Notes: generated by a model from the sequence alone, not told the origin. A stretch of DNA of 64,000 bases from Octopus vulgaris (GCA_951406725.2 OX597818.1:2046001-2110000), one strand, 5' to 3'. Positions 1,690 to 62,300 are shown, numbered from the stretch's first letter. Numbers and translations: made by a program.

Positions 1690-2940
1690 CGAATTAGCCA
1701 ATTGGAAATAGCCAATGATTTAAATGACCGCTCCCTGACCCCCAATATAATTTTAAATATTTAATATGCATAAACATAAGCATAAACTTTTGGACTATAT
1801 TCAGCTTTGACATAGAGTTTGAAGTTGCTACTTTGGTTTTTAAAATTGAATTTGTTAGAATTACGTGGATGTATTAATTTTAATATGCATATAACGGAAA
1901 CGTAAACATTGCGAAAAGTTTGGATTTACTTTCTGGATTCTATAGTTGGATTTGTTCGCGTAACATGGATGTATTAAATAATATCTAGACAAATTTAATA
2001 TGCATTTAACAGAGACGTATACATTGTGGACCTAACCCAGCTTAGACATATAGATTGGATTTACTATATTGGATTCTAAAATTGAATTTGTTCGTGTTAT
2101 GTGGATACGTTAAGTAATATCTAGATTATGTTTGTCTGATTAATATACTTATACGCAAATATTTTGTTTGTGCATGTATATTTATGTATACGTGTGAATA
2201 TTTATATTTCGAACCTTGTTAACGTGAATTTTTGTTATGTTAGTAAACATGAATATAGGATGTATGATCAGAAGAGGATTATCGTTAAAGCAATAATACT
2301 GTTGGTACTGTTAAACGTAGTAGTGTATATACATTAGAATGTATTTACTTGACTATACGACGTATGATATACCCAATGTAATGTAATTGTTCAATGATGT
2401 TCTTTAATGTATTTTGCGCATGTGAATAGTATGTGCGATTTGCATATGTATATATATATGTATGTATATTTGTATATTTTTATATGTACATATATATATA
2501 TATATATATGTATGTATGTATTTGGGATATTTGTTTATTATTTATTTGTATATATTAGATAATAAGTGCAGCATGTTTTGTATATCAATATCATTATTAT
2601 ACTTTTCAAGTAATTATAACCTCTGACGAGGCCTATGGTTCTTTTAACATATAAGTATAATTTTTAATGTCTACAACCATAATATACTGACATCTATAGG
2701 CAATATAAGTTGGATTGACTTTTGACCATAGGCTGAAACAGCTGTAAGAAGTAGTTTATGAATTTCAATAATTTATAATATGACTTTTAAAATATGTATT
2801 TGTAATATTATTATTTTTATTATTATATTACCTATTGATTTATATAATGTTTTGTTTGTTTTTGATGTTCTCGTTTATATAATTAATAAATAATGTAAAA
2901 TTGTAATATCCGTAAGTTGATGAACGAGATGAATTTGTTT
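1690..2940 (+). repeat. AT-rich dispersed repeat, probable PLE tail, with about three degenerate ~110-125 bp internal units
   Basis: 1700-1820 is similar to 47875-47990. The repeat ends in a hammerhead fold at 2618-2752. Confidence 0.5.
2618..2752 (+). ncRNA. Type I hammerhead ribozyme motif (CUGACGA core, long stem II loop)
   Basis: CTGACGA 2623-2629; stem II GGCCTATGGT/ACCATAGGCT; GAAAC-AGCT-GTA 2735-2746. Stem I is degenerate. Confidence 0.7.
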
Positions 2941-3171
2941 CTCCATTTTCTTATTTGTATGTATTTATGTATGTATGTGTGTATGTATGTATGTATGTAT
3001 GTATGTATGTATGTATGTATGTATGTATGTATGTATGTATGTATGTATGTATGTGTGTATCTATGTATGTATGTCCTGGGTATGGCTGTAAACTAAATCC
3101 AGTTGTATGGTTCTACTTTAGCCATTCCAAATTCTTGAGGAGTGTGGAACCTCTCATTAACATTTATTCTT

Positions 3172-3385
3172 TTCTTTTCTACTCTAGATACAAGGCCTGA
3201 AATTTTGGGGGAGGAGGCCAGTCGATTAGATCGACCCCCAGTAAGCAACTGGTACTTAATTTATTGACCCCGATAGGATGAAAGGCAAATTCGACCTCGT
3301 CGAAATACGAACTCAGAACTTAAAAATAGACGAAATACCGCTAAGAATTTCGCCCAGCGTGCTAACGTTCCTGCCAGCTCGCCGC
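3172..3385 (-). mobile_element. tRNA-derived SINE (Meta-domain-like)
   Basis: Minus-strand head GCGGCGAGCTGGCAGGAACGTTAGC (A box), GAGTTCG (B box), central GCCTTTCATCCTATCGGGGTCAATAAATTAAGTACC, and an A-rich tail. Confidence 0.75.
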
Positions 3386-3497
3386 TTTTATTTGCAGAGA
3401 TTCTGTTTCCCTTCATTTGACATTGAAGTTTGGGTTCCTGGCCTGCTCACGCCCCACCCCCATATATATATTCATTCTTACATAGAAATATATATAT

Positions 3498-4580
3498 TGT
3501 TACGAGAGGACCTCCGAAAACTGTACGGAATCCCTCAGACAGGCCCGACTCAATCAGCGAATGTTCTCGCCACGGAAACTCGTCGGAGAGGAGAGGAGAG
3601 ACACAACGACAACAACAACCGCAGCAGCACAGAGAGATACAGAGGCACAGAGGCAAAACGGCAAGGCAACACTGGCTTACATTCAACAACAGTTTATATG
3701 ACAATCAATTGTTACAACATCAAGATACATCAAAGCATTTAAGGGAAACAACAAATCAATACATCATACGGGTATACCACAGATCAAAGCATTTAAACAT
3801 GCATGTAACAATATAACAGTGTTTCAAAGGTACACGTCCGAAGACACAGTTCTTTAAAGTCTTTTTCTAAACATCACAGATAACGTCACATCAACAAGTC
3901 CTTTACTGTTCTTTTCACTGTTCATTTCTTTTCACTGTCTCTTTACATCGTGACACGTATCAATACATAATCAAATACCTTAATTCCTCATTAGAATCGC
4001 CAGTGTCCCATTTTGCACTCCATCTCTCCCTCAATACTGCTAAATCCAACTTGCCAAACTCCTGCATCCCATCGCTCGCTCCTAAGATTCCACCGCCTCT
4101 TGTCCTGACCTCCAGAATCCGACTGTCCACTTCGACGACCGACTCCCGACTGCCTCAAAACCTCACTTCCTCTGTCCTGACTTCCACTGCCCTCATCTCC
4201 CTCTGTCTCTACCGCTCATACCCTCTCTATTTGCTCTCTGATTCCTTACTCTATCTTTATCCTCAATCTGTCCCTTAGCCTTATACTCTATCTCTCTCAC
4301 TACTTTTCTTCTCTCTGCCCCTCATCCTCTCTTACTGCCAATACCCTCTCTATCTGCTCTTAGCCCTACTGCCTATCTCTCTCACGACAGCTCTCAGATC
4401 CCTTAATCTGTCTTCCTCTTCCACATTCTCTCTGACCCCTTCTCGACCGCACAAAGTCACAGGTCCTTCCAAAGGCCATTAGTCTCCCAGTAAACAAAGG
4501 GCTGTCTCTTTTCTTCCAGACGTGCCGGCGCCACACCCAAAAGTGGGTCAGAAATACTGCACTAGCCAAAATCCATAACA
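3498..4580. mobile_element. Probable solo LTR
   Basis: TGTTA...TAACA termini, 1083 bp, flanks ATAT/CTAT (4-bp TSD with one mismatch), sharp composition change and no coding motif. Confidence 0.6.
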
Positions 4581-4585
4581 CTATA

Positions 4586-60067: not shown

Positions 60068-60444
60068 TATCCTTTTCTAGGTATTTCATCTTTCAGATGT
60101 TCTCCCTGGAGGTAAGACAATTTTTTCTAGTTTGTTGCACTCACGCATTTTTGCTAGTACATACGCGGTGAAGCTATACATTAGCGTCGTATTATTACGT
60201 TCGCTATTTCCAGTAAATATCGGTACTTCGTTGTGCTATATATTTACTTCTTTATATATATATATATATATATATATATATATGCACATATACATACATA
60301 CATATATATACATATATATATATATACATATACATACATACATACATACACATATATATATATATATACATATACATACATACATACATACACACATACA
60401 TACATACACACATACATACATACATACATACATACACATTTATA

Positions 60445-60610
60445 TGATTGATCGCTAGCCACTAAACCTTTTTTCATTTTCTCTCTCTGTTTATTTCTGT
60501 GTTCCTTTCTGTTGAAGAGCGTAGGTTGGAAACGTAAAAGACTTTCTCAATTCCCGAGTGTTAAACTAATACGTCTGTTTGTTGTTTACACACCCGTCTT
60601 CGTCTTTTGT
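60445..60610 (+). repeat. PLE-tail-like repeat with hammerhead-like fold at 60505-60540
   Basis: CTTT-CTGTTGAA-GAGC-GTAG-GTTG-GAAAC-GTA-AAAG; second copy at 8366. Confidence 0.55.
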
Positions 60611-60656
60611 TTTGTTTTTGTCGTTGTTGTTTTTTAAAATTCCAGCTATATATATA

Positions 60657-61436
60657 TGTAACGATTAGTATTATGAGATGTATTGGAGTTGGCAGTTGGC
60701 GATTGTATCGGGTGTTGCTGTTGCTGATGTGCAGAATGGAAGAAGAACAGCGATCGAAGTTTTAAGGAAATATTTATCGTTACTTTGTATAATGTCTTGC
60801 CTCGACGGGCAAGTGTGTGTATCATATAAAAACAATAGTTATCTTTTCTTGTATGTTGCTGCTGGTTATGTTTGGTCAACTGCAAGCTGTCCAACTAGGA
60901 ATTAGAAGATAGAGTGAATGTTAAAGGTAGGGAGTCGATAAAATGATACCTTCATGGTGCCTGACATTTAAACAATAGTGGTGTTGTGATAAGACACTGT
61001 ATCATAGTTGACATTCTCACTGGTAATCCTTCTCCCGGTTGAATGATCTCACTAACTGGATTTTGCCTGTGGTCGCCTCTACGTCATCTTGTTGCCAGCT
61101 GGATTCTCACTAACTGGATTCTGCCTGTGGTAGTTTCTACGTCATCTTTTTGCCAACCAGCTTTTTCCTACGGTGTGGTAGTATTTATGATTTTCCAAAC
61201 TAGTTAGGAGTGACATATTGTTGAGAACAATAGATTTCGTTGGCGGTCTGTTATCTCTGTTCTAGCTTTTAGTGGCATAGAAGGGTCAAGTGGAAAAGGC
61301 ATTATTCTACTTAGCGAAGGCATCTGGCAAATGTAACTGCTGTCACTCACAGAAAATCTATTGTTTTACTGTGAGAATAGTGGTCGAATTGTCAAGTAAA
61401 ATTTGGCGATCGAGAATCGCCAAATGATCCACAACA
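60657..61436. mobile_element. Possible LTR-like element
   Basis: Starts TGTAACG right after (TA)n; internal ~57-bp tandem pair 61047-61155; ends near ACAACA. No TSD seen. Confidence 0.3.
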
Positions 61437-62254
61437 TGCATGATCCACAACATGCACATATATACTAAATACATACACATACTTAGATATGTGTGTGTGA
61501 TTCTATTTTGATGTTTAAATTCTAAGTGAAAACCTTATTGAGGACAAAATCAGGAGGGCATAGGTGTGGAGAACAAGTTTTCTGGTCAGAAACTACGAAA
61601 GCGAAGAATGAATATAACTGTAACGAGTATCTTCAACAGAATATTAGATTAACTTTGAGAAGACATTAAGCCTTGATACATATAGACATAAATGCATACA
61701 TACATATCCCCACCCACACTCTTAAAATCATACGGATTATTTTTCGTAATCACGTTGTCTACAAAATTTATCATTTAAACATATTAGGTCGACAGAAAAG
61801 CGTTTTATAATGATGGGAGTTTAATGACAGTTTGCATGATTAACTGTTAATTATTCGGACAATTAAGCTAATCATCTTATTTTCTGTTGCTGTTCAGATG
61901 CCAACACATCGGCATGCTTATGGCAATGAATTTAAATGAGAACATAGACTCAATGTGAATTATATTTATCTCAAATTAATCACCTGTTAATGAGCAAAAC
62001 TGTCATTCACGAAATACAAATGTTTGAGGATTGACTATTGCACGCACTATTATTCACAATAGCAATTTACTGTTATTAATCAGAATCAACCAGAACCATT
62101 TTAATAGTAAATTTCTGGGCTGTTGATTGATTTCTTTGTCCTAATTGTTATTGTAAGTAACTGTATATCGACTTTATTCAGTTCTATATTTAAGAGATGA
62201 GGAATTATGTACATTATTTACATTTGACGGATATTTGTCCTCTTGTTTGTTGTT

Positions 62255-62300
62255 AACACAACGTTTCGGCTGATATACCCTCCAGCCTTCATCAGGTGTC
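62255..62300 (-). ncRNA. Minimal type I hammerhead ribozyme in the PLE tail
   Basis: GACAC-CTGATGAA-GGCTG-loop-CAGCC-GAAAC-GTT-GTGTT. Confidence 0.85.

Follow-up and report, generated by a model that had tools for sequence, protein, structure and literature searches.

The 3' ends of Penelope-like elements (PLEs) in Octopus vulgaris carry type I hammerhead motifs that have probably been held under selection for the active-type fold, judging by comparison of repeat sequences, and that would cleave slowly, likely as dimers and together with the protein of the element. The starting point was a stretch of 64,000 nucleotides (nt) (OX597818.1:2046001-2110000, here denoted the window) of a 2.8-Gb genome, full of microsatellites and retroelements. 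A previous reading of the window, made from the sequence alone, had listed 11 hammerhead folds from about seven repeat families and had claimed that the tertiary pair between core positions 3 and 8 co-varies among them. All 11 cores were found in the sequence with the letters as listed, and the folds fall into seven families, denoted here A to G; families H and I were added in this work, and all the letters are our own naming. Six positions used in the previous list (8789, 22252, 22492, 48800, 53255 and 62289) are ends of folds or cores and not the first core base, N3, which is given in Table 1.

A three-stem junction with an open stem I, G12-A13-A14, A15.1-U16.1 and H17 is present in families A-G and H. 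The consensus bases U4, G5, A6 and A9 are kept in A, B, E, F, G and H, and are broken in D (U6), in I (C9) and in part of C and D' (C4), D' being the A6 sister clade of D. Stem III is palindromic in A, B, D, E, F, G and H, has one unpaired central base in C and is non-palindromic in I, and an extra base lies between 9 and 10.1 in A, D, E, H and I. The family consensuses retain both the 3:8 complementarity and the stems. The PLE origin proposed for these folds was confirmed for families A-E by an open reading frame (ORF) for reverse transcriptase (RT) and GIY-YIG endonuclease upstream on the same strand, and the same holds for H and I; it is likely for G, and for F no PLE ORF match was found within ~1.5 kb at 30 loci. 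Several traits of endonuclease-bearing PLEs were observed, namely inverted 5'-truncated arms (A), tandem copies (D and I) and flanking TA repeats.

The 3:8 pair and the A6U lineage

Complementary exchanges at positions 3 and 8 appear when families are compared with each other. We built an RT tree of 18 rows, including 15 of 50 related loci taken from metagenome contigs, the 15 being picked for long ORF matches and downstream room. Family A (G:C) is sister to I (C:G) plus H (U:A) with support 100/99, and C:G relatives lie outside this group. Two metagenome loci with U:A, L248 and L253, fall in the other half of the tree, and a single clade of the three U:A rows was rejected (p-AU 1e-86). Family B, also U:A, is absent from the tree; its RT piece matched the E-type protein and not the A-type. 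This brings the number of separate double swaps to at least four (A, H, B and L248/L253), each of them complementary. If both positions changed at random, the result would be complementary with a chance of 1 in 3 each, or about 0.012 for four. Families A and B had been picked by a reader seeking swaps, and H, L248 and L253 came from descriptors that left 3:8 free.

The 50 metagenome loci were searched with such a hammerhead descriptor, blind to 3:8. It gave six matches, all with a Watson-Crick 3:8 pair, all in sense and 130-185 nt past the ORF match (shuffles of the loci: 2.8 matches, 0.9 Watson-Crick, with a maximum of 3 over 20 rounds). A less strict stem I brought in L248 and L250, and among the 21 loci with at least 180 nt downstream, eight had a clear motif and two a weak one. 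An alignment of 11 rows, restricted to clear motifs from three local families and eight metagenome relatives, has a Watson-Crick 3:8 pair in all 11 (C:G 7, U:A 3, G:C 1). Paired cells make up 93.9% of this alignment, compared to 17-62% in slid controls, and 92.7% of its stem II; 26 cells changed on both sides versus 8.0 in shuffles that ignore relatedness, and the covariation score was reached by none of 500 shuffles. The stems show compensatory changes as well: a swap in stem I between D and its A6 sister clade, a C:G to U:A change in the homologous stem II of A and H, and a variant of the palindrome of family F.

Within families the pair is inherited. Genome censuses were run with exact patterns, core positions being left free where stated, and backwards-pattern controls gave 0 or 1 match. 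They yielded 6,338 matches for family A, 1,554 for H, 3,699 for I, 419 for B, 5,983 for C, 18,333 for D and 8,735 for E, and first-look candidates numbered 671 for F and 827 for G. Tallies were made by eye on the first 100 listed matches, which are the earliest places in the genome and not a random sample. In these, the 3:8 pair is Watson-Crick in 91-98 per family: G:C in 94 (A), U:A in 95 (H) and 95 (B), C:G in 98 (I), 98 (C), 94 (D) and 91 (E). No family showed a double 3:8 swap among its first 100 listed matches, the deviations being single changes. Forcing A or C at position 3 on the stem II of A and H gave 457 genome matches. Of the first 100 listed, 98 are mismatched, as expected if the mismatches arose by decay after insertion, and two are swapped; no amplified mismatched family was seen. 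The proposed co-variation therefore holds between families, in the RT tree and the 11-row alignment, and fails within them.

These data bear on the view that the hammerheads are neutral relics, carried through replication by a few master elements, and that the 3:8 pattern is made of chance events picked by a seeking reader. Simple inheritance of 3:8 within each family would suit that view, and so would the composition of the window list: two pairs among the 11 folds are inverted duplicates and three copies are degraded. Folds 48842 and 53262 are the two arms of one inverted insertion, and 22295 and 22496 likewise, so that the list holds only two families other than C:G, both duplicated. Selection on the fold, which had been argued from this one window, does not follow from two swaps in duplicated copies; it is supported by the RT tree together with the 11-row alignment across organisms. 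The double swaps (at least four, independent and all Watson-Crick, with H, L248 and L253 coming from blind descriptors) and the decay of mismatched copies argue against neutral relics, as does the avoidance of the core and stems by subfamily changes in family D (see below). We regard neutral inheritance as highly improbable.

We also examined how well the folds stand out from the background. With positions 3 and 8 unconstrained, a relaxed descriptor gave eight strict folds in the window, seven of them with a Watson-Crick 3:8 pair; 20 local dinucleotide shuffles averaged 0.1 and 0.05. It picked up seven of the 11 listed folds and missed 2623 and 59996 (long stem II or loop II), 8370 (decayed palindrome) and 60509 (decayed base 11.1); these four were accepted as real because the family alignment supports each. 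An Rfam scan of the window showed no hammerhead family among the 150 of 252 rows listed, and the miRNA matches there are microsatellite-driven. A census based on recurrence covered 1,025,415 bases and gave 167 matches in eight clusters, five of which were seeded by our own searches; seven clusters have a Watson-Crick 3:8 majority and the remaining one, of two copies, is split 1:1. This census added family H, overlooked by the sequence-only reading. An unbiased 400 kb held 39 copies (13 D, 12 D', 7 E, 4 C and 3 A) and none of B, F, G, H or I. The descriptor gave 18 matches there at a score of at least 9, of which 11 were Watson-Crick (shuffles: 8.3 and 1.7); the excess is all C:G (9/18), as neutral relics would have it, and the sample was too small to serve as a source of new swaps.

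The second line of evidence comes from family D, in which the core reads CUGUNGA. Among its first 100 listed matches, 95 carry U6, and position 7 is U in 45, A in 24, C in 19 and G in 12. The genome pattern fixed U4 and G5; in rows found by the flank these are U4 in 25/27 and G5 in 27/27. Extrapolation from the 13 copies in 400 kb gives roughly 90,000 copies in the genome. A tree of 76 D-like copies separates an A6 clade (D', mostly CYGAYGA) from the U6 clade with support of 100/100 each, and along the U6 clade position 7 shifts stepwise. Another register that would restore A6 in family D was rejected, since D aligns to the A6 sister clade without gaps. As a separate observation, D' (L032, L037, L061 and others) reads mostly CCGACGA (U4C); most of its 12 copies in the unbiased 400 kb carry C4, and none lies in the window.

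For an unbiased sample of D we gathered copies by their 3' flank alone, which gave 29 rows; removing duplicates, rows with gaps and rows that diverge on the 5' side left 24. An allele was called shared when present in at least three copies, CpG transitions being left out. Shared alleles occur at none of 29 core and stem columns and at 17 of 61 flank columns (Fisher p=0.001; 24 copies), and the ratio of shared to rare changes is 0:22 in core and stems versus 19:50 in the flanks (p=0.005). Rare changes are spread evenly (0.64-0.83 per column). Positions 7 and 17 both carry shared alleles, A or U and rarely G. The avoidance of core and stems by shared alleles therefore indicates that the replicating master copies were held to the hammerhead pattern after A6 had changed to U. 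Positive selection for U6 itself cannot be claimed, as most flank columns are likewise free of shared change.

Possible roles: slow cleavage, protein recognition and cutting of host transcripts

According to the reading we favor, type I hammerhead motifs on the sense strand near PLE 3' ends would be maintained for a catalytic-type fold. The RNA of the element would be cut slowly after position 17. In tandem PLE transcripts two copies would pair via their palindromes into a double hammerhead, and cleavage at the predicted sites, ~35-110 nt upstream of the element 3' ends, would trim the multimeric RNA. A6U, A9C and U4C would be tolerated slow variants, and most genomic copies, which are truncated, single and decaying, probably do nothing. 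The dimer and protein steps are modeled on other PLE hammerheads (PMC4209133; PMC11167929). According to published work, positions 3 and 8 form a tertiary pair when the ribozyme is in its active conformation; that this pair has been restored by compensation several times therefore suggests that selection acts on the active state.

A number of observations weigh against this account. Raw RNA reads from three runs of one study show no pile-up of read ends at D or at E, even though E is canonical; as the libraries are unstranded and fragmented, this is a weak test of cleavage. The largest lineage is A6U, and the young family I joins A9C to a non-palindromic stem III. Published assays show less cleavage for core changes of the A6C, U4C and CUGA-turn type: the A6C form is much slower in Mg2+ and active in Mn2+ (PMC7151607), and single and double mutants of the CUGA region other than G:C, which would include U:A, are low in a pairwise scan (PMC9901934). 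Insertion of an anole PLE in vitro did not need cleavage (PMC11167929). Nearest-neighbour energies of the dimer and of two open monomers are nearly the same for A, D and E, and favor the dimer only for B; the folding z-score is below -2 in only two of nine window folds, and the single-strand minimum free energy (MFE) clearly backs only A. Eleven of the 21 metagenome loci with downstream room had no hammerhead, and the lack of correction for relatedness in the alignment shuffles counts here as well.

Some of these points would fit the chief rival reading, a fold kept as a recognition structure for the PLE protein, serving ribonucleoprotein assembly or the choice of RT start; at least the families with A6U or A9C would then have lost cleavage or show it only as a by-product. 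Both changes have become fixed in families that spread with great success and whose stems, GAAA and 3:8 pair are intact, the RNA reads lack end pile-ups, and the anole PLE mainly uses RNA that has not been processed and inserts even with a mutated hammerhead (PMC11167929); moreover, PLE clades without hammerheads spread well (PMC8557442). Yet the D subfamilies vary exactly at positions 7 and 17, with the very bases that cleavage is known to tolerate, the compensated pair is a tertiary pair of the active state, and a natural A6C hammerhead still cleaves, and does so well in Mn2+ (PMC7151607). We consider recognition in place of cleavage unlikely.

The RNA reads cover D and E at summed depths of ~1,400-3,900 at a likeness of at least 85%, equally on both strands; both families are present in RNA, mostly from other copies. 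Such abundance, ~39 copies in the unbiased 400 kb and the ability of A and F to close stem III within one molecule could also be taken to indicate efficient monomeric ribozymes that cut host transcripts in sense, forming a genome-wide regulatory layer. This would be hard to reconcile with a stem III of 2-3 bp that is palindromic in most families, with the lack of cleavage ends among D and E reads, with the decay of most copies and with the inactivity of the minimal PLE hammerhead monomer in published tests (PMC4209133). We consider such host cutting very unlikely, and both it and neutral inheritance are disfavoured.

The G3:C8, the two U3:A8, the young A9C and the A6U lineages might all be working ribozymes, a natural mutational scan of the core, with A6U and A9C being rescued by dimers, by the element's own protein or by a changed metal preference; this is possible, though we hold it doubtful. 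In that case the CUGANGA consensus would fail to detect a sizable fraction of the hammerheads of animals, among them one of the largest lineages of this genome. Searches limited to CUGANGA do, as had been proposed, overlook families A, B, D, H and I together with U4C subfamilies; in the unbiased 400 kb, A and D account for 16 of the 39 copies.

Families and other elements of the window

Table 1. Hammerheads and associated PLE features of the window (N3, first core base)
Feature	Position	Strand	N3	Description
Family G hammerhead	2619..2750	+	2623	CUGACGA; ~11-bp stem II; ~90-nt loop; palindrome ACAGCUGU; A17 at 2746
Family D hammerhead	8365..8402	+	8370	CUGUCGA (A6U); palindrome decayed
Family A hammerhead, sister subfamily	8789..8839	-	8832	G3:C8; other loop II; ~150-nt 3' fragment; z -2.7
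Family H PLE insertion, head-to-head	8860..12610			Broken RT/endonuclease frame ~9780-11820 on minus strand
Family H hammerhead, decayed	9022..9061	-	9057	U3:A8; GAAA damaged; sense to broken H ORF
Family H hammerhead	12480..12519	+	12484	UUGAAAA (U3:A8)
Family I 3' ends, two inverted	21352..21621			Both truncated before core
Family B 3' fragment	21768..21811	-		Truncated at core
Family B hammerhead	22252..22299	-	22295	Inverted arm of same insertion as 22492..22539
Family B hammerhead	22492..22539	+	22496	UUGAUAA (U3:A8); palindrome ACAUGU; A17 at 22535
GIY-YIG endonuclease fragment, family D type PLE	43528..44127	+		87-89% identity to ORF upstream of D hammerheads in L092/L093
Family A PLE insertion	48717..53387			RT and GIY-YIG frame 52033-49877 (-) and inverted 5'-truncated copy; arms 48717-50246 and 51887-53387; TA microsatellites on both sides
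Family A hammerhead	48800..48849	-	48842	G3:C8; sense, ~1 kb downstream of PLE ORF
Family A hammerhead	53255..53304	+	53262	GUGAACA (G3:C8); extra G before stem II; 7-bp stem I; 5-bp stem II; palindromic AAUAUU stem III; U17 at 53297; in inverted 5'-truncated PLE copy
Family C hammerhead	59598..59635	+	59602	CCGACGA (U4C, C3:G8); 3-bp stem II; A17 at 59631
Family F hammerhead	59993..60064	+	59996	Canonical CUGAUGA; interrupted long stem II; 12-nt palindromic stem III
Family D hammerhead	60505..60540	+	60509	CUGUUGA (A6U); palindrome ACGU; A17 at 60536; stem II damaged in this copy
Family E hammerhead	62255..62300	-	62295	Canonical CUGAUGA and extra A; U17 at 62260
Family E RT and GIY-YIG frame, broken	62500..63968	-

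The family A frame is 718 amino acids (aa) long from stop to stop and contains a C-x3-C-xx-C linker; the nearest named relative of its protein, at 57% identity, is labelled Octopus vulgaris. PLE protein matches lie upstream in sense at 15 of 30 family A loci, and the fold at 53255..53304 is the MFE fold (z -2.8). Among the window proteins, Pfam gave no family for the family A protein and matched RT only in the E fragment and in an unrelated long interspersed nuclear element (LINE). The family H frame is 38-52% identical to that of A, depending on the segment. We considered whether one element carries both a U:A (9057) and a G:C (8832) hammerhead; these belong to two separate insertions, and the family A 3' region is without a second motif. 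Family I, the sister of H, was found via protein P0001 (4,378 protein candidates). Its full copies, at loci L293-L296, carry CUGAUGC downstream of the RT/GIY-YIG ORF on the sense strand, C9 being present in 94 of the first 100 listed matches; frames are open up to about 1,311-1,312 aa and the tandem period is 4,584 bp. Family I is a young PLE. Many inverted copy pairs were seen among the genome matches of A, C and H. The two hammerheads of such a pair are separated by only ~30-55 bp, which places the points of 5' truncation and inversion, in many cases, immediately upstream of the ribozyme.

RT and GIY-YIG pieces were found upstream of family B in one of 30 loci (L102). Family D hammerheads lie downstream of a GIY-YIG frame in 4 of 30 loci and are in tandem in L092/L093; no hammerhead follows the D-type endonuclease fragment of the window. 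The family C hammerhead is the 3' end of a PLE with the RT motif YRD(D/N)GL and, in L241, a 420-aa RT/endonuclease frame upstream; U4C is present in 27 of its first 100 listed matches. An RT fragment at 13561-13962 (-), to which no hammerhead is assigned, is 39% identical to the family C protein. The family E hammerhead is located ~200 nt past the stop of a PLE ORF that is without the cysteine linker, which is present in A, B, D, H and I. Presumably family E is akin to Poseidon, and C and G to Hydra. Family G adjoins similar frames in L242, with other sequence in between; the copy at 2623 has only two stem I pairs beside the core, and a major subfamily has four. The linker of A, B, D, H and I fits Neptune/Nematis (PMC8557442).

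Family F sits in a ~430-nt unit (about 59760-60250) with no ORF and with a partial direct repeat, and looks like a retrozyme-type unit. Like the non-LTR (long terminal repeat) retrozymes (PMC7229834; bioRxiv 10.64898/2026.07.22.740005), it is small and ORF-less with one type I hammerhead and a partial repeat; those form tandem ORF-less monomers and circular RNA, whereas family F is known here as a monomer with a partial repeat only.

Further recurrent families with CUGA(U/A)GA hammerheads were seen outside the listed sites at L072, L210, L058 and L086, and the window may hold a related copy at 55523+. Other retroelements include two tandem minus-strand LINE copies at 30300-39820 (endonuclease, RT and zinc-binding domain), with a 1,138-aa open frame at 38170-34754 and a 445-aa frame upstream of it, and broken LTR-retrotransposon-like pol pieces at 24600-27970 (+), where protease, RT, RNase H and integrase are assigned by resemblance. 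A long inverted repeat at 23796-24064 has runs of TTAGGG-like hexamers in its arms and is possibly a DNA transposon end.

Relation to known hammerheads

The octopus motifs resemble the PLE hammerheads of Cervera and de la Pena 2014 (PMC4209133) in their location in PLE repeats, the extra base (A9/10.1), G10.1:C11.1 and a short palindromic stem III, and likewise in the many families per genome and in copies that are mostly truncated, single or inverted. Those minimal type I hammerheads cleave weakly as dimers, and they include a U3:A8 family with about 1,300 matches in Schistosoma (PMC4209133). Here, in contrast, sister families of a single RT clade differ in having G3:C8, U3:A8 or C3:G8, and cores with A6U, A9C or U4C have reached thousands of copies; neither finding is named in the accessible text of that paper. 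Natural U3:A8, a changed position 6 and U4C were described as rare variants with reduced activity by Perreault et al. 2011 (PMC3088659) and for the A6C hammerhead of phage Bcep176 (PMC7151607). Compared to these rare single examples, the variants found here define whole high-copy lineages; G3:C8, U6 and C9 are not named in the accessible parts of the two reports.

The exchange to G:C has been engineered. In a full pairwise scan it was the only rescuing swap of its region (PMC9901934), and C3G/G8C partly rescues the anole Poseidon PLE hammerhead, which cleaves only with the PLE protein (PMC11167929). Family A, with its 6,338 genome matches, is a natural instance of the same swap. The variant cores are not mentioned in the portions consulted of PMC8557442, PMC6765202, PMC6155905, PMC7229834, PMC3884650, PMC6962438, PMC12192606 and bioRxiv 10.64898/2026.07.22.740005. 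Our literature search turned up neither a natural family with G3:C8, A6U or A9C nor a study of octopus hammerheads.

Small PLE hammerhead variants that cleave as dimers, the same RNA class to judge by the title, are reportedly the subject of work by Lunse, Weinberg and Breaker in RNA Biol; that survey, known to us by title, may hold such cores.

What was known before thus comprises the occurrence of hammerheads in PLE repeats with many families per genome, U3:A8, A6C and U4C as natural cores, and G3:C8 as an engineered one. No natural precedent was found in print for a G:C family that sits among sisters with other pairs, for an A6U lineage of high copy number and constrained pattern, or for a young family with A9C.

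The role of PLE hammerheads is puzzling, given poor cleavage in vitro, a need for protein in the one reconstituted case and dispensability for insertion in vitro. The G:C form of the 3:8 tertiary pair, which our searches otherwise turned up only as an engineered rescue, gains natural comparative support from family A. The octopus genome offers natural pairs, with G:C, U:A and C:G plus A9C in sister families and A6 versus U6 in sister clades; because these related, recently active elements differ at diagnostic core positions, cleavage and recognition as the role of PLE hammerheads become testable against each other.

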